From assembly GCA_051453625.1 (NCBI GenBank), contig JBOZIK010000001.1, positions 21,703,704 through 21,767,703 of the forward strand: a DNA stretch of 64,000 nucleotides. The letters are read 5' to 3'. Positions within the stretch are counted from its first letter, which is position 1, and every line of letters starts with the position of its first letter. The notes beneath the pieces were generated by a model. It ran no database searches. It saw nothing but the letters and a program-made list of their open reading frames with translations, and was not told the DNA's origin. This DNA comes from Welwitschia mirabilis (Eukaryota). Both the position numbers and the translations under genes were made by a program. Shown piece after piece: positions 24,390-63,900 of the stretch.

Positions 24390-26404
24390 ATATGATTGTA
24401 AGAACTTTCATATTTAAGATAACTTCCTCCATAAGAATAGTAAGTTGTACATTTCTAAGGATCATTAAGGTAGAACTTGTTGGGGAATTAAAAAAGCATT
24501 ATGAAGATATGTTTGAATATTATTGCTTGGATAAAAGACTTAATCCATTAAGGAGATCATACCATTAGTCAAATATTTATGAGAATGTATCATAGGTGAT
24601 GAAATTTGTTTACATATTAAAGAGTAAGAAAACAATCAATAAATGAAAGATTGTACATGTTATTACTAATTCCAATAAAGTCAGGATAGGACTTAAGCAT
24701 GGACTTCATTGTATGAATACTTGATTTTAAAAGAGATCATTATTCATCATGTTGGTCATCGAAAAATTCAATAAAATGATCTAATTTATTCCTTATGCTA
24801 ATATGAATGATTGTTCAAATAGGACTAATACAGTTCTTTAGAAAGATTGTGTATTTTCATGGGTTATAAAAAGTAACATTTTTATACAAATATTTCAAGT
24901 TTGTTTATTATTTTTAAAGGATTTTATGATGCATGATGGATACTAAGCTATAATATTTTGTAGTGTATCATCCATAGACAAATGAGTAGCTTAAGGTAAT
25001 GAATTACGACATTAGGATATTATAAAGATGATTTTGTGAAGGTAATCTAAATAGGTAAAATAATTAATTATGATATGTAAAATTTTATTACAATAACTAA
25101 ATGAGTAGAAGTAGATGACAATTACCATTTGAAGTGAAATACATATATCAATTGAGGATGCTAGATATGTTGCATGATATGCAAAAGACTTTAGTAATGG
25201 TAAAGGACTATGTTAAGAGCATTACAATGTCTAATCAGTATGTTTAACAAATTTTAAAAGAGTTAAACTTGAAGACTAAGAATGTATCAAATAAGAATAA
25301 AAGACATGTAAAGTCTAAGAAAAATGAAATAATGATGGCATACCTATGTAAGTAAAGATTTTCCACATGTACCTATTACAAAATTAAGTTCTAGAAGATT
25401 GGTTTATGAAAAACTTTGAAGAATATTTTACTAAATTCTTACTAGTTAGATCTTTTATAAAATGAGGATATCTCACTTATATTTAATGTTTCTAACTTGG
25501 TGAAGTATTATAGATAACCTACCAAGGATTAATCTTGGATTATAAAGTTGTAGAAATTAAAGAAAAGAAAGCAAAATTTAGATGAGAGATAAATGATTTG
25601 GATATCATAAGAAATAAATACGAACAAACATATATAAGAAGTACATAGTCTAATTACTAGTAGATTTTCTAGAAGATGAAATTTGAATTTTAGAGTACAA
25701 TAACCTATTAAGGGATCATAGAAGTCTAACAAAGAATAAATAATGTTCATGTGATAATGTACTTTTAAGTGGGGCAAGAATAATATAGGAGCATTGTAAT
25801 GTTACAAAATCATTAATTAAATAATGATGTATGTTAAGCACTAATGAAGCATGGTTAATAAGAGATTTGAATGGGTGTGACCCAAATATATAAATATGTG
25901 TTTCTTCATTATCTAATATAAGACTATGACATTAGGTGAGGTTGGATATACTAGGTGGATGTAATTGATAACAATCTTGGCTAAATCCTAAGATTCCTAG
26001 GAGGGGGACTAAGGTCGTAGTTTATGTCTTTACATATAACCACTAGTCCAAGGCTGTTTACTAATGATGTGGAATGTAATTTGCTGATATAAATAATAAA
26101 AGATTGTTTCTTTCTAAAATGGTCCTTTTTATTTCTATGAATCCTAGCATATTATTTTAAATGTTTCTTTTTATGCAAAGTAATCAAAAAATAGTAAAAT
26201 GGGAAACACTCCGTATCAGAGCCAATAACAAGTGGTAAACCACTACTTGAAGAAAAACAAGAAAGAAAATCTATTTATAAATTAAAAATAGTCAAAAGGC
26301 CAAATAGTACATTAAGGAATAAAAATATGGTGATCAAAGGAAATAAGGTATTAGCAGAAACAGGGTGCATAACACCTTAACAAAGAAAAAATCAAACATC
26401 ACAG

Positions 26405-28895
26405 TTAAGGAGAAGGAAGATCCTTCATGGAAAAAGTCATAAGATTATGGCCCTTTTTGCTTAGAATAGAAGGCTCCATGCCACTTAGAACTACTTTCAT
26501 CCTAGTAGGCCATGTAGGAACTACCATAGTACTAATTTTAATTAAAGAAGAAGCTACTGCAGAATCTACCTTAGTAATAGGATATAATAACTTATAGAGC
26601 CTTACATGAAGCTTACTATAAGTAAATAAAATCTCCAATATATGTTCTTTTGAGAGCTTCTTGCCATGATATATTACATTTATATCATTAATAGTAATGG
26701 CTAGAGGATCTACACAAACCTGAATCATCCTCTCACTTTTTGCTGGACAAGCAAATAAGGCAGCCTGACTTTCTTCTATTACAGCCACTTGTGAAGCATT
26801 TTCCCATGATTTCTTTTCTGACAAACATATGTTCTCTACCTCATTCTCCAACATTCGAAGGGAATCACTCATAGAATCTTACTCTTTAATTGCATGATTA
26901 TCCATGTAGTAAAATGACTTTATAATATTCATCATGTTATAGAAATCTTAGAGTGGAGTAAGCCATTCTCACTGTGGAGAATAATAGGAGGTGAAATGAA
27001 TAGAATGGCTGCATTCAAAATCCCATGATATAACTACTACCTTGGATCATTGATGGGTGTACATGTCATTTAGGCATGAAGCATGCATGACCTATGCATG
27101 CAGAAGACTAGAAAGGGACTAGTAATTTCCTATCTATTTTATTAATGCCTTGACCTTGGGGTATAGGATCTCTACCACTGACAGAAGCTGATCTATGCAA
27201 TAGGAAACTTGGCCCTGTTCATTTACAATAGACTAGGAAGCTATAGCCAGGCAGTGATAAAGCTCTAGAAAAGAGCAAATAATAAGAGGTCTTTAACCTA
27301 GAGGCTAAAAACAAGGGATGGAATAAGACATATCCCCCTAATCCATTAAGATGTAAAAATCATTAAGTACCTCTTCCCCTTGAGATTCAAAAGGGAATAA
27401 TAAATCCATAAAGAGGCTAGTAGAAGGAATAGAAGAAAATGTTTCACTTATAGAAATGCACTCCTCCCTTAGCTATCAAAGATATAGCTTCTTCATAGAC
27501 CTTGATAAAATCCATGTCCTTCTCTATCAAATTTTCTACACGAGAAACTTAAAATAAAACAAGAAAATGCCTATGTCAAAAAAAAAAGAAATAAATAAAG
27601 AAAAAAAGAGATGCTAGTGGATAATACCTTATGGGGTTGGTATCGCTAAGAAAAGCTAAGGGGTGCATCCTCTTCATCTTCAAGTTTCACAAGCATAGGG
27701 AGATTCACTAAATCTTTATCACATTTCAGGCAGGAAGAGTCATAAGATCCTGAAGCCTTACTCATCTGCAAAAATACCAAATTCCAAAAACTAGAGTTAT
27801 CAGAAATATACTTAAGAGTAAGATTCCTTAGCAAAACCCATATCTCATATGGAATAGAAAAAGTACCTTGAGATATCTCTTCAAGATTATAACACCTGAA
27901 GCCTTCATTCTTCATAGATGAGGAAGATCAAGGATGTAATAAAAATTAAGTTGAAATCTCATGAGGAGACAAAACATAAGAAAAATTTATAGAATCAGCC
28001 CTAAATATTTGTATATCCCATGGACCCATAGAAAAAAAATATAAACCTAATAAAATATGGCCACAAAAATACTTTCCACAATCACCATTTCTCTTCAAGT
28101 GGGTAAACTAGGAAATTGTAGAAGAATAAACAACTAAGGCAAAATTGAAAGAAGCTCCACTACTTAGAAAGGGGAACAAGTAAATTATATGGATGGGAAT
28201 CTCACTCATGCGATCATGAAGAAAGGACCTACCATCAATTAGCTCCCCACAAGTTGCAAAACATGAAGTGGTAAGATTGGTGGTAAAATCCCATGGTGGT
28301 GGGTATCCAGCTCCTATACATATACAAAATTATCCAAGAACTTTGCTAAGAAGTATCAAAAGTCCTCCTTAGAATTAGAGACTTTGGGAGAAACATGATT
28401 ACCTTCACTCATTCTGAAGACTATCCTAATGCTTTCCTCTGAAATCTGAATTGGACCATGCTAAGGATGGGTAATGGTATCAGTATCTAGATCAAAGGAA
28501 GAATACAAGGTATTCAAGATGAAAATAACAATAGTATAACAAAGATATAAGGATGAGAAGCCATAAAGATCTAAGAGATTAGAGAAGAAGATCCAGGAGA
28601 ATCCTTGCTCTAAAGCGTGTTCCTCTAATTCCAACACTGTAGACCTGAAATTGGTAGAATTCCAAGAAATGGTAGGCCAAAGTCTATAAGCCGTATCTTA
28701 ACTAAAAAAAGAAGTGCATTCACAAATGCTACATGAAACTTATATTTGTAAGAAAAAGTAGGTTGTAAAAGGACCTGTATAAAAATCAAAATAAAAATAT
28801 TAAAATAAAAAAGATATTAAAATAAAAAAAAAGAAGAAAAAGAGATAATCAGAAGAATAAATAAAAGAATTACCAATTTAACTATGGAGGCACAT
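26405..28895 (-). pseudogene. Antisense, intron-containing accessory gene remnant of unknown function inside the chromovirus leader
   Basis: Minus-strand TATA CTATAAATAG at 28930-28939. T-rich GT..AG introns at 28775-28873 and 27548-27627. Long residual reading frames (ORFs 27646-27915 and 26405-26872, plus an open stretch at ~28320-28110). Confidence 0.65.
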
Positions 28896-29064
28896 GATAA
28901 AAGAAGTAAAAAAAGAGGGGACAATGGAGCTATTTATAGTGGTGGACTAGGGTTTAACTTAATCCTAAAATACTAGTTAACCATAATTAACCAAACCTCA
29001 TTTAAATGTAATCAACTTTAGTTAACTAAAAAAAAATCAAGGCCCTAAACTATAGTAAACTAAA

Positions 29065-29750
29065 GGCTGACATCATACTATAGAGATTAACATCACTCTT
29101 TTGAATGGTTGACATTGCACTTTAGAAGCTAACATCACACTTCTAGAAGGCAAACATTGCACTTCAGTGGCCAACATCGCACTCTCAGAAGGCCCACGTT
29201 ACACTCTAGATGAATAACATCATACTTTAGAAGCCAAACCAAAGGCCAACGTCATACTTTGTATGCTAACATCACACTTAAGAGGCTAATATCCCACTCG
29301 TAGATGGTTGACATCAAACTTTAGTAGCTAAACCAGAGGCCAACATCATACTTTGAAGGCTTATGTTGTACTTGATCTTGTCAAACTCAACATAACATTT
29401 TGAAACTTCTCAAAGTCTAGCATCACACTTGGGTGGCCGCCGTCACACTTGGATGCCCAACGTTGCACTTGTTCTTCACAAGCTCAGATTCTACTACTTT
29501 TCAAAGAAATTACTTTTTCTATCTAGCTAACCAAGAAAGCCTAACATTGTACTTGGATGGCCAACACCGAACTTGCTACTCACAAGCCTAGAACCATCTA
29601 TCGCCTCTCTAAGATCACCTGTTTTGCTCGCTAGTACAAGGGCTCCAACATTGCACTTGATGGCCTAACATCACACTTGGTGGCCTAATGTCACACTTGG
29701 AGGCCCCACATTGCACTTATTACATATAGTTACCTAACTTTACACTTGAG
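29065..29750. repeat. Tandem array of ~25 degenerate 20-21-nt units, consensus GGCCRACRTYRCACTT
   Basis: Units such as ggctgacatcatact, ggccaacatcgcact, ggccaacgtcatact, ggccgccgtcacactt and gcccaacgttgcactt. Confidence 0.9.
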
Positions 29751-29984
29751 TTCTTGGCACCATCCCTAGATACCTAGCGACACATAGACCCCAGTGGTAG
29801 TTACTCCCCATGTTAGCAATTTTGTTATGGTAACTACTAGAAACTATTCTCTCTAATCATTTTCTTAGCTATCAGGTAGTTATAGGTTCCCAACTTCCAC
29901 TAGAAAAACTATAAAAGGGTAGTACCACTAAAGGAGAAAGTAGATCTGGAGTAAGAGAACACTTGCAGAATCAAGTAAAGGAAT

Positions 29985-32900
29985 ATGAGTTTAGAAGGAG
30001 ATTGAACCCACTAGCATATCATGGAACACAGGGTCAATAAGTGAATTGATGCACTAGAAGGCCATATTAATAATATTCACTCACAAAATGAATAGTTAGC
30101 CAGTAATCTCGAGAGCCTTCTTTCTCACTTGGAAGAAAGACCTACAGAACCCAATCATAGGGAATCTTAAGAACCATCTTCTACATTAGGATAGCATACT
30201 CTTACCACCGATGTTAACCTCAAAAACATCCAAATGAGGTTATTAAATACATTGGCTAATCTTTAAGCTTTTTTGACAAATAGTTCCAACAAGTCCAACA
30301 TTGAATAACGAGAAGGAGGAGAACTTGCAACGATGATATGTTTAAAAACCTATGAAGGTAAGGCTGAAACAAGTGAGGAAGCCATACCATGGATCTAGTA
30401 ATTCGAGAAACATTTTAAACTTCAAAATATATCTCCAGAAAAATAGTGTATATATGCTACTATATTTCGTGCAGGAAACGAACAAGAATAGTGATCGAAG
30501 TACCAATAAAAACACCTGTATAAGATACCATGGAATACTTTTATTGAGAATTTTAAAAAGAAGTTCATTCTAGAAGATTTTATTGATGACCAAATGGTGC
30601 AATTCCAATGCCTACACCTAGGTAAACATCCATTAGTTGAACATTAGTTAGAATTTCAGTGTCTTATGAATTACAAAAAGAATTTTTTCAAAAAAGTAGC
30701 TAGTTAGTAGCTTTATTAGGACTTTTCCATGAAAAGTATGAAGTGTTCTCTACCTTTGGAAATTAAGTCTATAGAGGATGCCTATTATAAAATAAGGCAC
30801 TATTAGTAATAACAAGAGGATAGATGGATGGATTAACCCCACTAAGGAGATAAACATCCTCCTTTAGCCACACCACTAGTAAGGAAGCCATACAAAACAA
30901 ATCTTACCTACTATGAGTGCCGCAAGAAAGGCCACATTATCATGAACTATCCTTCCAAAGCATGACCATCAAATGTTCCTTAGCACAGTTAGCCTCAAAC
31001 TCTATAGAATCAAATCATGCCATTGAAAATAGTCTATGCTATCATTCACATAGGTATAATTCACAACCAACACTCCATCTTAGAGTTATATGGTTATATT
31101 TCATCTTTTGTTATTTCATTCCTAGTCGATAATGATGTATCACATAATTTTATTTCATCATCTTTATTTTACAAATTAAATACTACCCTTTTCAAATAAT
31201 AAGCATCTATCATAGGAGTTATAAGGGGTAATGTTTTCCTATAAGATGGAACTATTGCTCTCATTACTTTTACCATTCATTACTTACATTTTAGAAATAA
31301 GTTTTATGTCTTTCAAATTTGAGAATATCATGCCATTCTAGGAATTCCTTTCTTAGTTTTATATAATGTTTGGATTAACTTTCTCCATAGAACCTTGCAC
31401 CCATTTATTTGGATAATAAATTTTTAAAGGGAGGGAAAGAGGAAGAAAATCTTTTCAACCTCATCCAAATTAATTACTAAAGTTATTAAAAAGAAATAGG
31501 GGTTCATTCCTCTAGTATAAGTAGAAGATCATAAAAAGGATTATTTTATACAAGAAGAACTAAAGGAATTTTTAGATGTATTTAAAGATTCAAAAATGCT
31601 ACCATCCAAGAGAAAAGTATAGTATGCAATCAATTTAATTCTGGGAGCATAACTAATAGCCAAAGCACCATACCATTTCTTAGTGGTAAAATTAATAGAA
31701 TTGAAGTTATAGATCAAATAGCTATTTTTGGAAGAAAAGATTCAACCTAGTCTATCATCATTGAGGGCATCGATGTTATTTGTTAGAAATAAAAATGATA
31801 TCTTGTGACTTTGCATTGACTATAGAGAATTCAACAAAGTGATCATTAAGAACAAATACTCATTACCATAGATCGATGACCTATTAGATCAACTATAAGG
31901 GAATAAGTACTTCTCAAAGATTGATTTAAAATTTGGCTACCATCAAATCCATTTTAAGGATGAAGACATCTACAAGACTGCTTTCAAAATAAGATATGGA
32001 CATTATGAATTTGCAATAATTCCTTTTGGTTTAATAAATGTCTTAGCTATCTTTATGAGTTTAATGAATGATGTTTTTCATTCATACTTAGATAAATTTA
32101 TGGTTGACATTTTAGATGATATCCTAATATATTCTAAAAAATAAGATGATCATATTACACATTTGAGAAAAGTGCTACAAGTTCTATCCAAACATAAATT
32201 TAAGGCAAAATTAAGCAAATGTAAATTTTTCAAATAGAAATTAGTTATCTAGGACATATCATCTCTGATAAAGAAATTATAATCAACCCAGCCAAAGTAT
32301 AAGCCATAAGGAAATGGTCATAATTAAAAGACGTCATTCAAGTATGAAGTTTGTTAGGATTAGCCAGCTTTTACTAGAAATCTATTCTAGGATTTTCTCA
32401 AGTTGCAGCACCATTAATAGATTTGATCAAAGAAACAAATACATTCTACTTTGATAAGAAATGCAAGAAGACATTTCTCAGATTGAATTTACTCCTTACA
32501 ACCATACTGGTCCTTAAGATTACAGGCGTAAATAGATCATAAAAGCTTGAAGTATTTTTAAAAATAACCCCTTCTAAATATGTGATAGAGGAGATGGGGT
32601 TAGTTACTTATAGAATATGATTTTAAGCTGTAGTAAATCCCTGGAAAGGAGAATAAAGTAGCAGACACTTTAAGCAGGATGTGATGTATGTTAGCTACCA
32701 ATGTCACATCCTACTTATCCGTTTTTCTCAAAACTTCCTTGAAACAAGATCCATACTTTAAGGAAATATACCAATAGGCTCAAGAAGGAAAAGAAGTATA
32801 CACATACATGATCTCACAGGATGGATTCCTTCTAAAAAGAAGATGACTGTGCATTTCACAAGGCCCATGGAGAAGGAAACTAATGTCTAAATTACAAGAA

Positions 32901-34120
32901 GTTCCTTATGTAGGACATCCAGGATTTGTCAGAAACTATTTCTAATTATAGAAATGCTACTTCTAATCTAGAATGAAGTTAAATTTAAAGGAATACATTT
33001 CCAACTATACTATATGCTAGTAGATGAAAATTGACTAACTAAGGCCCATTGGACTCCTTCAGCCATTGGGAATACTACAATGGAAATGGAAATAGGTATC
33101 TATGGATTTCTTCACTGGGTTATCCCTCACTAATAAATAGCATGATGAAATTTTTATTTTTGTAGATAGATTAGCCAAGATGGCTCATTTTATTGCATTC
33201 TAAAGTACAAATACAATACAACAACTAGCTCTTCATTTTGTACAAGAATTTTTTGGTTTACATGATGCACCTTTGGTCATAGTATCTAAAGTTTGGAAAA
33301 GCATCTTCCACCACTTGGGTACTAATCTCAGTTTCAATACTGCTTACCATCCAGAAAAATATGGCCAAATAGAAAGAATAAATTATATATTAGAAGACAC
33401 TTTAAGATTTTATGTAGCAGGAAGGCCTAAACAATGGGAGAACTATCTACATCTAGTAGAACCTGCTTATTTCTAGACATTTCAGACTTTTATCCGCTAT
33501 TCACCCTTCGAAGCAATATATGGTAGAAATTGTTTTACACCTATTACATGGTTAAATCCTTCACAAAGGTTAGAAACAAAGCATCTTCAGAATTAAAAAT
33601 GATGGAAGAAGTAATCAAAAAAATAAAAAGATAGCTACATGCAGCACATGATTGATATAAGAAATAGTACGATTAGAAGCATCAAACCCACATAAGTTTG
33701 ATAAGTAAACAAGTACTATTAAGAATCAAACCAAAAAGAAACTCCTTAAAAATGGGAAAGTATAGTAAACTAGAACCATGATTTTGTGGTCCTTTCAAGA
33801 TTATTGAAAATATTAAGAATCTAGTATACAAACTAAAGCTTCCTCTCCAAATGTCTTGAATACATCCAATTTTTCATGTAAGCACTATGAAACCATACCA
33901 TAAAGATAAAAACCAAGACTATACCTTGAACTGATAACATATAATGCTCAAACCTAATTTAAATTTTGTATTTCAACTAGAAAAATTCCTAAGTACCAAA
34001 TCTAGGTAACTAACAAATAAAGGTATAAACAAAGTACTTCTTCAATGGACCCATTGTAATCAGCAAACATGGAAAAATAGGGAGTACATGTAAGAGACTC
34101 TTCTCAAACTTTTTAATAAT
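29985..34120 (+). pseudogene. Decayed gag-pol: gag, zinc knuckle, protease, RT, partial RNase H, integrase, chromodomain
   Basis: TYYECRKKGHIIMNYP (~30906), FLVDNDVSHNFIS (~31120), LCIDYREFNKVIIKNKY (~31810), [21 protein letters not shown] (~32112), VSMDFFTGL (~33096), FNTAYHPEKYGQIERIN, FCGPFKII, IHPIFHVS, and chromodomain-like VLLQWTHCNQQTW (~34030-34075). Confidence 0.92.
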
Positions 34121-35396
34121 AAAAACTAATATACCATTTTTGTGTTATATTATCAATGTATTTGTAATTAAATGATATCTCCTCTCTTCTATTATGTCTT
34201 ATAGATTTTACATACAAAAATGTGGAGGAGCATGGTTTTAGAAGTAATGAAAATCAAGAAGAGACCGTACTCGAGGACGAGCACAATTCCTAAGAGGAAG
34301 GGAAATGTAATGTTACAAAATCCTTAATTGAATAATGATGTATGTTAAGCACTAATGAAGTGTGGTTAATAAGAGGTGTAAATGGGTGTAATCCAAATAT
34401 ATAAAGATGTGTCTTTCATTATGTAATATAAGCTTATGGGATTAGGTGGTGGTGGATAGACTGGATGGATGTAATCGACGACAACATTGGCTAATCTCCA
34501 AGGTTCTTAGGAGGGAACTAAGGTCATAATCCATGTCTTTACCTATAACCACTAGTCCAACGCTATTTGCTAATGATGTGGAATGTACTCTGCTGCTATC
34601 AATAATAAAAGCATGTTTCTCTCTAAATTATTCCTTGTTATTTCTATGGATCCTGGCATATTATTTTAAATGTTTCTTTTTATGTAAAGTAATCTGAAAA
34701 TAGTAAAATGGGACATTATAAGCATCCTATGTTTTCATTATTTAGAATTCTATTTTCTAAGGTTTAGTTTTCTTATATGAAAAAATAAAAAATCCACATG
34801 TCTAATTCTTATAAAGGAATGAGTAGATTTTTAAGTTAGCATGTTTTAGGAAAATACAGATGTAAGGCATATGCTATGTTTAGAAGATATTTCTAACAAA
34901 ACATATAAGAGGATAAGATTATAGTATTCCTTAATAATTATGATTCCTTTTAAGTCTTATAGAATAATAGTATCTCTAAGGAGCATTAAAGTGAGTTGTA
35001 GAGATCAAAATAAGGCTTTTTAAGGTCATTATTGAGGAGATCTTATGAAAGCTATATTAGATGTGATTTTAGTTTGTAAGCTTGTATTTTTTTTAATCAA
35101 TCATGTAAAGTTATTCTCTCATTGCCTTTAATACTTTGTTTTTAATCTATAATCTTGTATATTTTGTACCATTTATAATAAATGTTTCTTTCATTGCCTC
35201 TAATATCTTGTTTTCTTATGCATTTCTTTTTCTTTTTTATTTCTCACTAGATACACAATTCTAAAAGTTCTCTTAAGGTTTTTTGTTCATTTTCTTTTTA
35301 TAAATAATACTACAAGAGAATGCCTTTATCTACTTATTTAGAACTCTTACATATATCTTCATAGTTAGGACACATCTTCTAAGATCGTGACTTACA

Positions 35397-40938: not shown

Positions 40939-41516
40939 CTTTTACTTAATTTTATTGACGAAGGTAAATATTGAACTTTAGACTTGGATTCCCTACACAA
41001 ATGCATAATTTGTAAAATAACTTATGATTTTAGTGAAAATAAAACTTGAATTTACTACTGCTATGGATACTACATTCTTTGGCTCTCGTATTATATTATA
41101 TAAAGATTAGTTAGATTTTATATCATAAATACCTAAAAATATGTAAATCAAATTTTTATAAATTTAATATTTAATATATATATTTTAATTTTTTTAAAAG
41201 TGTTTTTCTCTTTATTTAGAATCAAATTCACAACCACAAAATCAAATTAGGGAGTACTGCTCTACCATTAACAGAAAACTCAATCCTATGCTTCTAGTTT
41301 TATATCTAACATAATACGATAATAAAACAAATAAAAAAGAAAACCAAATCACTCATAATATTTCTATGAATTTAGGAAAAGTAATTAATTCTTGTTATCA
41401 CCGGTTTCTTAATATTTTTACTTCGTTAGTGCCTATTTGTCACTTATTTCTCATTTGACGACAGACAAAGCAGAATTTCAGATCATTGCAGAGAGACAGC
41501 GAGACAGGTATAGTAC

Positions 41517-43121
41517 CATGCAGAGAGGATGCTTTTTCATTCGGAAGATGGTTCTTCTGGTCTGCTTCCTGTGAGTGCCAACAAGCCTGTCTCTGTCGGC
41601 TTCATCGAGGGGCGTGATCATCGCTGCGTCAACAGACGATCCCTGACTTGAATACTGTTGTGTTGAATACTGTTTACTCATCAAATCCTCCTGCTTTTCA
41701 GACCCACTTGAGCATTCTTGGATTTCTGATTTCTGTTCACCAGATTTCCCAGATGTTTCTTCACAAGAAGAAGTCGAAGAAGAAGATGAAGAAGACGAGG
41801 ATGAGGAAGAAGAAGAAGAGGCCGCTTCCAAAGCAGAATTATTGATCTGGCCAGAAGCTCTGGGCTCAATCTCAGTGGGCGATGGAAAATGAGTTGCAGA
41901 AGGTCTGGGCTCTGCAACAAACACAAAAGTGGATCCCATGGGCGAAGAACAGTAATCATAAGCAGTAATATCACTGTTGGTCTTCACCTGATGATCCCTC
42001 TCAACATCGGCAATACTGAGCTCAAGACAAGGGCTGTCAATGTTGCTGGCAGGCCTTATTAACCCATCGTCATGGGCTGTGAGAAGATTTCTGGATTGCC
42101 AGGGAAGGGAATGCAGAGACCCAGAAACCTCCCAGGAAGAAGCCAGCATTGTGGAAGATGGTCTGGCGCTCCCTCTCTCTAGTTCCTTCGAGCTTTTGCA
42201 ATGGCTTTTTCTGCTTTCCAGTTCCAATACACAGTTGCTGCTTCTGCAATGGCTTTTCCTGCTGTCCAGTTCCAGTTCCAGTACAGAATTGCTGCTTCTG
42301 CAATGGCTCTTTCTGCTGTTCAGTTCCGATACAGAATTGCTGTTTCTGCAATAGCTTTTTCTGCTATCCAGATCCAATACCGAATTGCTGCTTCTGCGAT
42401 CCTCCAGAGGCACTGCCCGGGACATTTCCATGACTGTCAGAAGGCAATTGGCAAGCAATGCCGGTGCAGATTCATGGTCCCTGCGCCTGCTGGGCGATGG
42501 TCTCCAAACTGAAAACTTTGATGCAAAAGAGGACTCTGAAAGAGCCTCACTTCTGCTATATGGCATGTCTTTGAAGGGTACAGAGGTCAGATCCAGTTCA
42601 AACATTTCATCCTCTGGTTCCGAGCAGTCTTCTGCTTCCTTGGCCTTGGGAGACTGTTTCTGGGGTTCCTGCACTGCTTCAGAGACCTTCACCGGGGCTT
42701 TCGTGGGAGGCTCAGGAGGATTCTTGAGCTGGAAAACGTTGAAGAGCTTGGATTGAAGTGTTTTCGACGAATTTGCAGGCTGAAGGACCTTAACAGGTTT
42801 TGGCGAGACTGGTTTTTCTTTGGGTGTTGGCAGAGTGAATGACAGAAGGGGGTCTCGTTTGGCCTGGATTTCCAGAGGCTTTTCTTTCTTAGGAAGGCTA
42901 ATTGGGCTTTCGGGAATGATTATTGGGGTTTCAGAGGGGAATGACTTCTTCGGCTTCCCTGGGCTTTCTTCCCATAGAAATGGAACAGATGCAGGTGGGG
43001 CAAATGAAATAGAGGCCAAGGAATGGCTTTCTTCAGTTATCAGAAGCTCTTTCTCATTGCCCTCTTCCAGTTCTTCGCTTGCAAATGTGTACAGCTCTGC
43101 AATCACTTCATGAAGCAACAT
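41517..43121 (-). CDS. Main coding exon of a DUF688-like, Ser/Pro-rich plant protein (535 codons from the first in-frame ATG)
   Basis: Long uninterrupted GC-richer ORF with motif PASVPFLWEESPGKPK near the N-terminus. Donor ATG|GTACTA at 41517/41516. Confidence 0.88.
42190..42402 (-). repeat. Coding tandem repeat of ~48 bp (RSSNSVLELDSRKSHC-like, 4+ copies)
   Basis: Directly visible in both the protein and the DNA. Confidence 0.92.
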
Positions 43122-43402
43122 TTTTTCACAGCTGCTGCAAAACCTGATATGCAATTGCGGACTTTTTAAGGCTCCAGATGCTACCCTCGGCCACAGATTT
43201 TCCTTTCCAGGGCTCAACTACCCAAGTGCCTGCTTGCCCTCAATTAGCAAAAGTACCCGTGAGCAAAAGAACCAAATACCCAAAAAAATCATGTAGGCCT
43301 CTGAAGCAAACTAATCAGAGGATTGGGCTAACAAAGCTAAGGGCTAGGAAAACTTTCTGCAACCAATTTAGTAACATTTCCAGTTCGTGCTGCCGCAAAT
43401 AC

Positions 43403-57279: not shown

Positions 57280-60200
57280 TGTCATAACCCACATTTTGTA
57301 ATAGAGTTTCTAAACTATGTAATAAATTTTGATATACATTTTAATGAAAATCCCTTTTTATTAAGAATTTATTTGTAGCCCTATAATCAATAATGTATTG
57401 TATGTCAAACATTATAGATACTCATAAGATTACTTAATTATTTAATCTTAGTNNNNNNNNNNNNNNNNNNNNNNNNNNNNNNNNNNNNNNNNNNNNNNNN
57501 NNNNNNNNNNNNNNNNNNNNNNNNNNNNNNNNNNNNNNNNNNNNNNNNNNNNAAAATTTTGGTGGCCAGGGATGAAAAAGGATATAGCAGAATTTGTATC
57601 AAAGTGTCTAAATTGTCAGCAAGTTAAGGCAGAACATAGGAATCCAACAGGACTACTCTATCCTCATAATATTCCAGAATATAAGTGGGATGTAATTTGC
57701 ATGGACTTTGTATTAGGGCTTCCAAGAACCCCAAGAGATAATGACTTAGTTATGGTTATAATTGATAGAGCAACTAAATCAGCACATTTCATTCCAGTGA
57801 AGTCTACTTATAGCACTAAGAATATAGCTAAAGTATATATTCAGAATGTTGCTCGTTTACATGGTGTACCCTTAGTAATTATTTCTGACAGGAACTTAAA
57901 ATTTACCTCTAAATTTTGGCAAGAACTACAATTGGGATTAGGAATTAATCCAAATATGAGCATAGCATTTCATCCTAAAATAGATGGTCAGGTAGAAAAA
58001 GCCAATCAAATCCTAGAGGATCTTCTTAGAGCATATGTTCTTGATGAGCCTAAGAGTTGGGAGGAATACCTACCATTAGGGGAATTAGCATATTATAATA
58101 GTTATCAAAGTTCTATTCAAATAGCTTCATTTAAGAATCCACTACATGAACAAAACCTGAGGAAATATTGACAATAGGACTAGAAATATTACAAGAAATG
58201 TACAGTAAGATGAGAACCATCAAGAATAGATTAAATAAAGCAGCAGATAGGTAAAAGATGTATGCATATCATTAAAGAAGAGACCTTGAATTCCAAGTAG
58301 GAGTTCATGTCTTCCTCAAGGTATCACCAATGAAATAAGATATGTAAGGAGTCAAGAAAACAAAACTAACGCTCAGATTTATTAGACCATTTTAGATATT
58401 GGAATGTATTGGATCTATTACATACAGACTTACTATACCTTCCCAATTATTGCACATTCCTAATGTTTTTTATGTGAATATGCTAAGAAAGTATATTGTA
58501 GATCCTTATCATGTGTTAAATTGGTCTCATATTTAGGTGGAATCCAATTGTTCAACTATAGAGGAGCCGAAAGCAATATTAGACTGACAAACTATCAGTT
58601 TACAGAACAAAGAGATTCATCAAGTAAAGATAAAATGGAGTAATAATATTCTTGATGAAGCTACTTGGGAGCCAGAAGAATCAATGAAAAATAAATATTC
58701 AAGTCTTTTTAAATTACATAATATATAATATTAGACTTTTAAATCATTATTTACTATGATTCTTAGGAGTGATTACTTTATAAGTAGGGGAGTATGTTAT
58801 AACCCACATTTTGTAAGCTTCAATTAATAAAGCTTCTAAATTATGTAATACATTTTAATATCGATTTTAATAAAAATCCCTTTTTATTCTTAGTTAAAAT
58901 TTATGTGTAGCCCTATAATCAATAATATATTATATGTTAAACATTATAGATATTCATAAGGTTACTTAGTTATTTTATCTTAGTTTTGGGTAATTTATTA
59001 TTTTAAGTTATTATAATGATTATAAGAAATAAACCTATTTATGATTAGGTAAGTCATTTTTCATGGTTAAATAGTTAAACTGAAAAAAATCCATATGAAG
59101 ATGTAAAATAATGTCTACAAAAGAAGAGACATGTAACATATTTATTTTAATCATTTGTTCATGTGTTTTATTCAAGTTTTAAAAAAAACTAAAATTACTT
59201 GGTAAAAGTGAAAGAATAAAAAGTAAGAGTACTATATTCAATGATGATAATTTTTCTTACAATCCATTATGACATCTATCTTACATTCAATTATGGCATT
59301 CCTTTCATGTTAATTTTTTTGTTGATATGATGGATCATGAAGAGTGTAAACATGTGAAAACAAGGACATGCACTCTTATCCATAAATTAAAAAGGATAAA
59401 TTAGTAGAATTTATTCTACTATAACTTTTATCCTTATTGATATTTATGGAAATACTTTATGCATAAAATATTATTTTTCTTATTATATCACATAACAATT
59501 TTAAAATTGATGCATTTGTTTTTTCAATGTATTTCAAATATGTTTTTGACTAATTATGATCCTATGAAAAATTAAGAAGGAACTAGCATGAAGAAATGAT
59601 GCATGCAATTAATCTTGTTAACTTAAGAAAGAAGATTACTCACTCAAATTAGGTGCATGAGTTATAAATAAGCTTCCTTTTATCATTCATACATCACTTT
59701 CATCTCTTACATAAGCTCTTACAACTTCTTATTGATTAATCTTATCAATGTCGCTTCTACACAAGCTCATCCAACATGTGATGAATCAATCTTATCATTG
59801 TCATTCACATGTGCAAATCACTTTTATATAAATTCTATCCAACTTGTTATTGATCAATCTTATTAAGTAAGAGAGCTTTCTTTATCTTGTGGGTAAAATG
59901 ATGTATATGGTCTTTAACCAATTATATCAAGGACCTTTGGTATACCATCTATCTATAAATACAGTCCTCTTCCTTCTTCTCAAACTAGTATTTTAAAGTA
60001 ATTTTATACTATCAAATTTTCTTCTCAATCTTTCTTCCTCTTGAGTGTGGAGTTGGAGCTTGGAGCTTGAATCTAGGAGTTTAAATTTTAGAACTTGAAG
60101 CTTGAAACTTGACGATAGGATCTTGGAGCTTAGAAATTCCTCAGTCTTCTTCAAAGATAATAAATCTTCTTTCCTCCAAGTAGGTTCTTCTTTTCTGAGC

Positions 60201-60914: not shown

Positions 60915-63900
60915 AGTATATTTTGTAAACATATCTCAGAATTTATAAGCAGAAAATAGCAAGCAATAAGTTTCTCCATAGAATAGATGACTATGAGTGA
61001 ATAGAGCCACTTTTGTATCGTAGCTGTAAATACCGAATTATGTAAAAATATATATTTGATTGGAAAAAATCTAAAATCCTTTATCTTTGTTATGGTGATA
61101 TTTATAGAGGTCATTTTAGTAGATAGAAGATGCTATGAAAATTTTTCATTTTGGTTTTTATTAGTCTACTTTTTTTTAGGATTTTTTTAATTTTACTATA
61201 AGGTGTAATTTTTGTTAATATTATGGTAGCCTTATTCATGTTCAAGAGATGCCACTTATTCCTATTCTTAAATGTAAACCTTTTTATTATTTAGGTATTA
61301 ATTTTATAATCCCTATTCACCCACCTTCTCATGATAAACATTATATTTTAGTGGCAGTAGATTATATTATTAAATGGATTAAAGCTATTCTTACTTCTTT
61401 GAATGATGTCCGAACTGTTTGTCATTTTTTTAAAACTCATATTTTTCAGAAATTTGGTTTTTCTAGGATTATCATTATTGATCAAGGAACTCATTTTATT
61501 AATCAGCATTTTAGAAAGCTTCTTTTATCTATTGGAGTAGGACATTAAGTATCTTATGCTTATCATCCTTAGACTAATGGATAAGCTAAAAATGCAAAGA
61601 GAGACATTAAGAAAATGTTGCAAAAATGTATCTCTATCAATAAGAAATCTTGATCTTCTAAGCTTAATGATGTTCTTTAGGCTTACCGTACTACTTGATA
61701 TAATTCTCTTGGTTTTTCACTTATAAACTTCTATATGAAAAAGTTTGTGTTTTACCTGTTGATGTGTGTTATAACTCTTATCGTGTTTTTTATGAACTTA
61801 ATATTATGGAATTTTATGAAAACCTTAAATATGGATTATCCCAATTAGATCACCTTGATGAAAAATATACTCATGCTATACATTATTAATTAATCCATAG
61901 ATCTTAAGCTAAGTTTAAACATGATAAAACTTTACTTCATTAAAAGTTTAAAGCTACTCAACTTGTCCTATTATATAATACTAGAGTACATATTTTGAAT
62001 AACAAATTAACCTCTAAATGGTTAAGTCCTTATTTTATAGAGAAATTTTATTCTATTCTCTCTATTAAGATTTTTGACTTAGAGACTAAGGAGATTTAGA
62101 AAGTTAATGAATAATGGTTAAAAATATATGAGGGATCTTTCAATGTAATCATGGATATAATAGAAGCACTTCTTTTGGAGGTTCCTGTTAATGAGGAGGA
62201 CTTCCACCCTATCATTCTCTAAATTCTTTATTAGCTTATTCCTTTGGTGGATGTTATGATGTCACTTGATCATCTTTTAGACTTGACTTATATGTTGCTT
62301 TATAAATTTTTTCATGACTAGTATTTATACTTGGGTATTTTATAGTGATAAGATTAGATTCACCCAATCTTGAGATATTTTCATGTCTATGAACTGGATT
62401 TTAAAGGAATATACCATAGTTCTTGTAATTATGTGGGAATTTTCAGGAAAAAAACATAAAGAAAGATTCATGATGTTCTACCATACTATAGTAATTTTTT
62501 TCAAGAGGAATATTTGGCAGTATTGGTAGCTATGGAAACTTTATTAGGGACTAGTTGATTATGCTTTATGACTTCTTACTTCTATAATTTTGGTTGTATT
62601 CCCTTCATCATGGAAAAGTCATAATAAAATTTGATGATATGGGATTAATGGTATTCCTGGTATCATCAGAGGCATTGCTTATTTCCTAGACTTTTAGTAT
62701 TCTTACATGATCATTTCACTTTTGAGGATTTAGGTGTATTTATGAGGTGTGAGTAGGTGAGTTCATTTCTAAGTAGCTTTTGATCTTGTTATTTATTTTT
62801 CTAAGCACTTAAGTTTTGGTATCACCATAATCACTACCTTTTTAAGTAAAACTTTATGGAGTTTATACATTTTGTTATACATTTTTACTCAAGTGGCTTT
62901 ATGATGTCTTCCTTAGAGGTTTACTAAGTTATAATTTAGGATAGATAAACAATTTTTTTCTTATTCCTTGTATTAGTTTTTTTTTCTTTGGTTTTTTAGT
63001 ATGTTATTTTAAAGTCATTTATACATTTTCTCATATTTTTATAGGACCTTATCATTCAGTAGTTTTTTTATTGTTTTCTCATGTAATATTATTTTTAGTT
63101 AGCATTTGAATTAATCAGAACATCTTTTACATTTCACAACTTTTATGAAGTTCCTTATACCTTTTGGAGCTTTATGCTTTATCTTGGTTTACTTTTTAAT
63201 TCAGGCAAATTCACTTAGTTTTCATTATCAAGTTTCAGCCTAGTTAGTTCATTTTCTTTCACCATAGTTTTCTTTTGNNNNNNNNNNNNNNNNNNNNNNN
63301 NNNNNNNNNNNNNNNNNNNNNNNNNNNNNNNNNNNNNNNNNNNNNNTAATAAAATCTGATACTTTGATGATCATATTTAAGTCTAATGTTTTTTGCTGGC
63401 ATCTTTATTTTTCTAGAAATTTTTATGATTATCTTAACATCAGGTGAATGATAGTCTGATTTTTTCTAAGAGTCATCCAAGAGTTGTTATTTGGATAAGA
63501 TAACCAGATGATAGTACAATAAAACCACAGTCCAAACCCTTTTTTCTTATTTTTTTTCATTGTCTTATCATTTCCTTCCATTTATTTAAGAAACGACAAT
63601 TCCTCTAAATCTTGCTAGAACCTTGGATTTTGTTCCACTTGATTTCATGTCCAAATTTTTAAGTTTTTAGTGAATTTTTTAAAATGAGGTATGTTTCTTT
63701 CTCCCTCTTGTTTTTCAATTTTTTTTTGGTATTTTTCATCCTTTTGACATGTAATTTTTACATATGTTTATTAGTTTTTTGTACTCTTTAATTTAAAACG
63801 TATGGATTTAATTTTTATTATGTATTTTCAAAGTTATAATCAGTTGTACATTTTATAAGAAACTTTTAACTTTCTATCCTTTACACTCACTTTCTTACAA

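Follow-up and report, generated by a model that had tools for sequence, protein, structure and literature searches.

A possible remnant of an antisense extra open reading frame between the primer binding site and gag of a decayed Ty3/gypsy element of Welwitschia mirabilis

What occupies the 3.76 kb that separate the primer binding site from gag in a decayed retrotransposon of Welwitschia mirabilis? The element, of the Ty3/gypsy type, lies at positions 25795-34720 (8.9 kb) of a 64,000-nucleotide stretch of DNA (contig JBOZIK010000001.1, positions 21,703,704 to 21,767,703), which is called the window here and whose numbering is used throughout. An earlier note on this DNA, made from the letters alone, had put the gap at 3.7 kb, in agreement with our measurement, and had proposed that it holds a spliced antisense accessory gene of a chromovirus. 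The stretch at 26225-29000 within the gap is present across the element family, has an excess of open frames on one strand only, lacks termini of its own and encodes no known domain. We give about an even chance to the reading that what is left here, in decayed form, is an orphan extra open reading frame (ORF) in antisense, belonging to the known class of 5′ reverse extra ORFs.

Residual coding signal was measured as the longest stop-free frame over each base, averaged across a region, and the values were compared with those of 200 dinucleotide shuffles. The gag-pol region of the same element served as positive control. The results were as follows.

26225-29000, minus strand: observed 69.4, shuffles 44.8 +/- 5.1, reached by 0 of 200 shuffles
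26225-27547 (T-rich tracts excluded), minus strand: observed 77.8, shuffles 39.4 +/- 6.3, reached by 0 of 200
27628-28774 (T-rich tracts excluded), minus strand: observed 67.7, shuffles 44.5 +/- 7.8, reached by 3 of 200
26225-29000, plus strand: observed 38.7, shuffles 37.0 +/- 4.3, reached by 59 of 200, at chance
gag-pol (positive control), plus strand: observed 44.8, shuffles 38.3 +/- 3.3, reached by 7 of 200
gag-pol, minus strand: observed 39.2, shuffles 38.9 +/- 3.5, reached by 76 of 200

About 2.3 kb of decayed coding-like sequence had been noted on the minus strand of the stretch, and the shuffle test bears this out: a residual coding signal is found on the minus strand and is absent from the plus strand. 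Three flanking regions, tested on both strands (six tests), were all at chance. The minus-strand stretch scored above the element's own gag-pol. When the window was scanned per kilobase, the minus strand of 26001-27000 reached 95, a value exceeded only by an intact, probable host gene (41-44 kb) and by the integrase ORF at 57553-58171; since the scan tops at these two, the measure detects real coding sequence. Among the minus-strand frames is the longest of the whole element, an ORF of 157 codons at 26408-26878. Its length was reached in only 1 of 500 mononucleotide shuffles and is greater than that of any gag-pol ORF of the element, the longest of which has 90 codons. The minus-strand translations are not of low complexity.

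The two halves of the stretch were also compared with each other. Their DNA alignment score was 27, against 26.1 +/- 2.8 for shuffles, and their best protein alignment was low-complexity sequence rich in F and L that was reached by 10 of 100 shuffles. The idea that the halves represent an old duplication was therefore ruled out. A self-comparison of the 64-kb window revealed no second copy of the stretch.

The element that carries the stretch is delimited by the following features.

25790-25794, no strand: target-site duplication AGCAT, 5′ copy, read directly in the sequence
25795-26210, plus strand: 5′ long terminal repeat (LTR), which begins TGTAATGT; its end is damaged relative to other copies
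about 26211-26221, plus strand: primer binding site, decayed, presumably of the initiator-Met tRNA type; direct reading and loose-end consensus TGGTATCAGAG
29985-34120, plus strand: decayed gag-pol with gag, reverse transcriptase, integrase with an SH3_Tf2-1 tail, and a chromodomain-like end; Pfam, read-through translations
34292-34305, plus strand: polypurine tract AAGAGGAAGGGAAA, which precedes the 3′ LTR; direct reading
34306-34720, plus strand: 3′ LTR; self-comparison and direct reading
34721-34725, no strand: target-site duplication AGCAT, 3′ copy, the same five bases after the 3′ LTR

The element had been described as bounded by a target-site duplication, and the 5-bp sequence AGCAT is indeed found at both flanks. 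The LTR pair (25795-26204 and 34306-34713) is 85.4% identical over 410 nt in a direct-repeat self-comparison. The LTR ends are of the TG..CA type and are partly mutated in the window copy; other copies end with ...ACATTACA ahead of the primer site, where the loose ends of contigs and reads run ...ACATTACA TT TGGTATCAGAG. We take the primer site TGGTATCAGAG to be of the initiator-Met tRNA type. As the LTRs are 15% diverged and stops and frame changes occur throughout, the window copy is dead.

Pfam searches of the read-through translations gave matches to RVT_1 (E=2.4e-26) and SH3_Tf2-1 (E=7e-17), together with weak matches, below the Pfam cut-off, to Integrase_H2C2 (E=0.0031) and, in a frame starting at about 29985, to Retrotrans_gag (E=0.017). 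The order gag, reverse transcriptase, integrase is that of Ty3/gypsy elements, with the gag and Integrase_H2C2 matches counted at their level below the cut-off. The element is thus an old, dead Ty3/gypsy copy. Its earlier designation as a chromovirus was not confirmed by profile, as Pfam Chromo found no match in the read-through frames or in the 51-residue tail at 33968-34120. What favours a chromovirus is the SH3_Tf2-1 tail and a motif in the 33968-34120 tail that by eye resembles plant chromovirus chromodomains, and the element is probably a chromovirus.

The distribution of the stretch within the family was followed with contigs from two DNA runs bearing two species labels (X1 and X2), mapped to 25700-34300 at a likeness of at least 85%. 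The mapped contigs numbered 22,992 for X1 and 24,486 for X2. Summed contig depth, which is not copy number, varied along the element in X1 as follows.

LTR bins: summed depth 3811-8230
26274-27134: summed depth 360-399
27135-27995: summed depth 1169-1672
27996-28856: summed depth 356-618
28857-29143: summed depth 1834
29040-29740, tandem array: summed depth 96-151
29718-30865, gag: summed depth 245-628
pol: summed depth 1126-3771

At any single place the stretch was covered by 22-39 different X1 contigs, compared with 14-17 in gag and 41-84 in pol. In X1, an LTR end is found upstream in 36 contigs whose match to the stretch starts at 26213. No pile-up at the borders of the stretch was seen among the best-supported loose ends listed, and no terminal direct or inverted repeats bound 26225-29000. 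The 3.7-kb stretch is therefore a multi-copy, variable, LTR-joined and regular part of the element family rather than a nested insert. The earlier note had named absence from other family members, or termini and a target-site duplication of its own, as grounds for abandoning its proposal; what we found was dozens of variant contigs under both species labels, at a depth like that of gag, and no terminal repeats around the stretch, so that neither ground holds. One of the 14 best-supported disagreements between contigs and window copy in 26225-29000 falls in an in-frame stop, at 28356-28358. Comparison by hand showed that nearly all mapped DNA contigs read another letter there, so this break is private to the window copy.

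Three further observations concern variation within the family. In both runs DNA depth was lower at the tandem array (29040-29740) than anywhere else in the element, which marks the array as the most variable part between copies. A joint between 28065 and 31299, supported by one contig in each DNA run, skips 3233 bases in which lie the antisense unit's promoter side, the tandem array and gag, and is a deletion derivative of the family. Differences between the window copy and the X1 contigs were mostly transitions (C>T at 408 places, G>A at 362, T>C at 312 and A>G at 275), with 16-101 places for each type of transversion. The G+C content of the window is 15-36% in all 2-kb bins except one, and 15-30% in most; low G+C and the excess of transitions fit a heavy loss of methylated cytosines.

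The candidate antisense unit is laid out on the minus strand, in the direction of its reading, as listed below; the tandem array separates it from gag.

29040-29740, plus strand: degenerate tandem array, unit lengths about 20 and about 42 nt, between the antisense unit and gag; repeat analysis
28930-28939, minus strand: TATA-like motif CTATAAATAG, a 10-mer found once in the window
28775-28873, minus strand: candidate intron 1, GT..AG, 99 nt, 68% T, in the would-be leader (GT at 28873-28872, AG at 28776-28775)
28317-28697, minus strand: would-be 5′-most frame, broken by two stops into 78, 34 and 13 codons; frame listing
27649-28329, minus strand: single frame with three stops (pieces of 73, 53, 5 and 93 codons), without homologue
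27548-27627, minus strand: candidate intron 2, GT..AG, 80 nt, 60% T (GT at 27627-27626, AG at 27549-27548)
26935-27547, minus strand: frame fragments of 25-46 codons that shift from frame to frame, within the half (26225-27547) that beats 200 of 200 shuffles
26408-26878, minus strand: the 157-codon ORF, of no known family
26405-26407, minus strand: stop codon ending the antisense unit; direct reading
26225-26404, minus strand: putative 3′ untranslated end of the unit, following the stop at 26405-26407 and adjoining the primer site

The TATA motif, both T-rich GT..AG tracts and the stop at 26405 had been pointed out before, and all were present on the minus strand at the places given for them. 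Individually the promoter and intron motifs are weak. The 8-mer core of the TATA motif, TATAAATA, occurs 27 times in the window, counting both strands, and GT and AG next to T-rich tracts are expected by chance. The window has 7 T-rich tracts (at least 60% T over 70 nt) on its minus strand and 19 on its plus strand, from which about 0.24 minus-type tracts would be expected per 2.8 kb; the two observed are mildly unusual. Both tracts and the TATA motif share their strand with the open frames. The would-be leader contains a sole upstream ATG, which is followed by a stop after five codons.

Live copies of the element would, on this reading, have carried an extra gene on the opposite strand between primer site and gag, transcribed from its own promoter near 28930 towards the 5′ LTR. 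Its product would be an orphan protein of roughly 600-750 residues. The promoter, the introns, the translation of such a product and any role of it in the life cycle of the element are inferred. Introns in antisense orientation survive reverse transcription. The two candidate introns, being antisense to the genomic RNA, would accordingly have passed through it unspliced.

Transcription was addressed with two RNA runs (raw reads bearing the species label of one of the DNA runs), each read to about a quarter and mapped at a likeness of at least 85%. Most of the mapped reads lay on the LTR and the 3′ end, and depth within the stretch was below 1. The stretch had been proposed to be a self-contained second transcription unit. 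The part of this that stands is a family-wide stretch with a minus-strand coding signal; its transcription and splicing are so far unsupported, as the runs contained neither a junction read nor any read of 95% likeness or more.

A number of results weigh against an antisense coding remnant, and they concern the frames, the splicing, the RNA, the relatives and the depth. The coding signal leans largely on the one ORF of 157 codons (26408-26878); a length of 93 codons, that of the next ORF in size, was reached in 191 of 500 mononucleotide shuffles. Codon-position periodicity does not set these ORFs apart from stop-free control ORFs, which show it too, and the high T content of the minus strand is unusual for a coding strand. 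The 93-codon frame ends six codons ahead of the second donor, and when 27628 is joined to 27547 a stop follows after three codons, so that intron 2 links no open frames here. Decay could explain these non-joining frames, and the gene model is unreadable from the window copy. Over the whole element (25700-34300) the two RNA runs gave 31 and 21 reads, none of the 52 reaching 95% likeness, and neither run had an RNA joint listed at the proposed introns (28874/28774 and 27628/27547). Such silence is equally expected of an old, silenced family, and the family may have been silent in those samples. Part of the summed DNA depth could stem from other repeats that share pieces of the stretch.

Searches for relatives of the encoded protein point in the same direction. 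The stretch had been reported to hold no recognisable domain, and Pfam likewise gave no match in ten minus-strand ORF pieces and in all six read-through frames. An exhaustive HMMER search with the 157-residue ORF found 0 matches at E<=0.001 among 1.84 billion representative proteins. Word-based searches gave 0 matches for a 227-residue piece among proteins of near length and 0 for a 127-residue piece among longer ones, the latter being weak evidence. A single-sequence AlphaFold model of the 157-residue ORF was poor, with a predicted local distance difference test (pLDDT) score of 43.6. In the ESM Atlas the best score for this ORF was 0.76, which gave no lead, and the 93-residue ORF had no usable match. 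Nothing was found when metagenome contigs were scanned with the 157-residue ORF and an integrase piece, when viral contigs were scanned with the 157-residue ORF, or when the whole element was scanned against Rfam.

These results are shared with the first of the competing explanations, which takes the stretch for a long leader without coding function that may act in cis or through antisense RNA, and traces the frame excess mainly to one lucky 157-codon ORF and to uneven local composition. A non-coding leader would need no homologue, family or fold and no RNA support, and all ORFs but one do fall within the range of the shuffles. That a leader here tolerates non-coding expansion is shown by the adjoining tandem array; plant LTR elements are known to contain large non-coding regions with tandem arrays, according to the passages drawn on from PMC6317226, and non-coding antisense retrotransposon transcripts are on record (PMC7264820). 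Set against this are the restriction of the open-frame excess to one strand, its presence in both halves when the T-rich tracts are left out (0/200 and 3/200), its level above that of the element's true gag-pol, and translations that are not of low complexity. We consider a non-coding leader conceivable though doubtful.

Another possibility is that of a passenger: a host gene or another mobile element would have supplied the stretch, which an ancestor caught once through template switching or recombination and which has been co-copied ever since with no role for the element. A promoter-like motif and intron-like tracts are what a genomic gene fragment would be expected to contain, the uneven X1 depth (bins of 356-399 against 1169-1834) would fit pieces shared with other repeats, and LTR elements are documented to capture host sequence (PMC7264820). 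Had the source been a conserved host gene or a usual transposon protein, the searches would be expected to give matches, and the lack of any homologue in them argues against both. No termini of a second element were found, and captured genes are usually in sense orientation and in one or few copies (PMC7264820), whereas the stretch is antisense and multi-copy. A passenger origin is in our judgement unlikely.

A separate insertion private to the window copy, for which the large distance from primer site to gag would be the sole argument, is contradicted by the DNA contig mapping (many variant contigs under two species labels at a depth like gag's, with the start of the stretch connected to LTR ends), by the lack of terminal repeats or a duplication of its own and by decay like that of the rest of the element, and we regard it as extremely improbable.

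The decayed antisense extra ORF remains our favoured reading, and it has a more far-reaching form: that a chromovirus-type family of a seed plant keeps an intron-bearing antisense gene with its own promoter between primer site and gag, encoding a relative-less protein needed or used for self-regulation. This stronger form we hold to be improbable. If true, it would place an accessory gene in a lineage thought to have the plainest gag-pol layout. As it stands, with a dead copy, a protein without relatives and no RNA support, the locus is a lead for a study of repeat annotation rather than a surprise.

Three other features of the window were recorded. An intact ORF of 579 codons at 41481-43217 (minus strand), by far the longest in the window, lies in an island of 46% G+C. 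A Pfam scan gave nothing above chance for it; five homologues were found, four of them with precomputed DUF688 (PF05097), the best being 33-34% identical and the named ones coming from Ginkgo and Cryptomeria. It is probably an intronless host gene. At 57553-58171 (plus strand), directly after an N gap at 57453-57552, there is a 205-codon open integrase ORF of another Ty3/gypsy element, with no DNA similarity to the element studied here. Finally, three co-linear direct repeat families at 1832-2861 and 62018-62911 are 75-81% identical and about 60.1 kb apart; these could be LTRs or two copies of another repeat.

It is common for plant LTR elements to carry extra ORFs, which are mostly orphan and have no known function. 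Those of chromoviruses are reportedly rare: Steinbauerova and colleagues (2011) are reported to have found them only in the 5′ regions of grass elements. A gymnosperm host may thus fall outside this range. A family-wide antisense unit 5′ of gag in a chromovirus-like element would also be a case beyond the Tat, Athila and SIRE groups.

In the passages drawn on here, Neumann et al. (2019) distinguish four classes of extra ORF (eORF) by place and direction, one of them eORF-5′R, and count 314 eORF groups in Ty3/gypsy elements (PMC6317226). The same passages state that 21.4% of eORF proteins, Ty1/copia and Ty3/gypsy taken together, resemble a known domain, and that the shortest elements are those of lineages without eORFs (PMC6317226). 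A review by Vicient and Casacuberta records extra ORFs upstream as well as downstream and in both orientations, with positions 3′ of pol the most frequent (PMC7264820), and reviews call for attention to antisense and spliced transcripts (PMC7264820). The background given with the original proposal, which had extra ORFs mostly 3′ of pol or upstream in sense orientation, was incomplete, as 5′ reverse ORFs already bear the name eORF-5′R in those parts of PMC6317226. The unit studied here resembles this class, as there described, in lying upstream of the polyprotein, in reverse orientation and without a recognisable domain, a lack that is usual among eORF proteins. It differs in length, the criterion being at least 250 codons and the longest frame here having 157, a difference that in a decayed copy is not telling for the family. 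Among the papers listed by our literature search, which drew on text passages of PMC6317226, none was found to describe a chromovirus with a spliced antisense ORF placed between its primer site and gag.

The antisense genes of the Tat/Retand group (gene23 of Grande, RIRE2, and ORF4 of Retand with Transposase_28) are likewise antisense units inside an LTR element, and the Grande gene has been shown to have its own promoter, according to a review (PMC7264820). Like the unit described here, they often lie beside tandem arrays, are present in most copies and have no known function (PMC7264820; passages in PMC11963269). They sit between pol and the 3′ LTR of non-chromovirus elements, whereas the present unit lies between primer site and gag. 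The domain PF04195 (Transposase_28), carried by 97% of Retand clusters in the passages drawn on from PMC11963269, was not matched by Pfam in our minus-strand ORF pieces and read-through frames. ORF1 of Ogre, also a plant Ty3/gypsy element, is comparable in that it adds coding sequence upstream of gag. It differs in being in sense orientation and in having a plant mobile domain, whereas the present unit is antisense and its signal is confined to the minus strand. This domain (PF10536) is found in 57% of Ogre elements according to the part of PMC6317226 drawn on, and Pfam did not match it in any of the six frames of our element. The closest parallels for the proposed introns are antisense-intron retrotransposition reporters and the HBZ gene of human T-cell leukaemia virus type 1 (HTLV-1), HBZ being named among retroviral antisense genes in the passages drawn on from PMC11963269. 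The logic is the same, in that an antisense intron stays in the genomic RNA and is inherited by new copies; splicing is proposed for the present unit, and if it occurred, the family would be a natural example of introns kept through antisense orientation.

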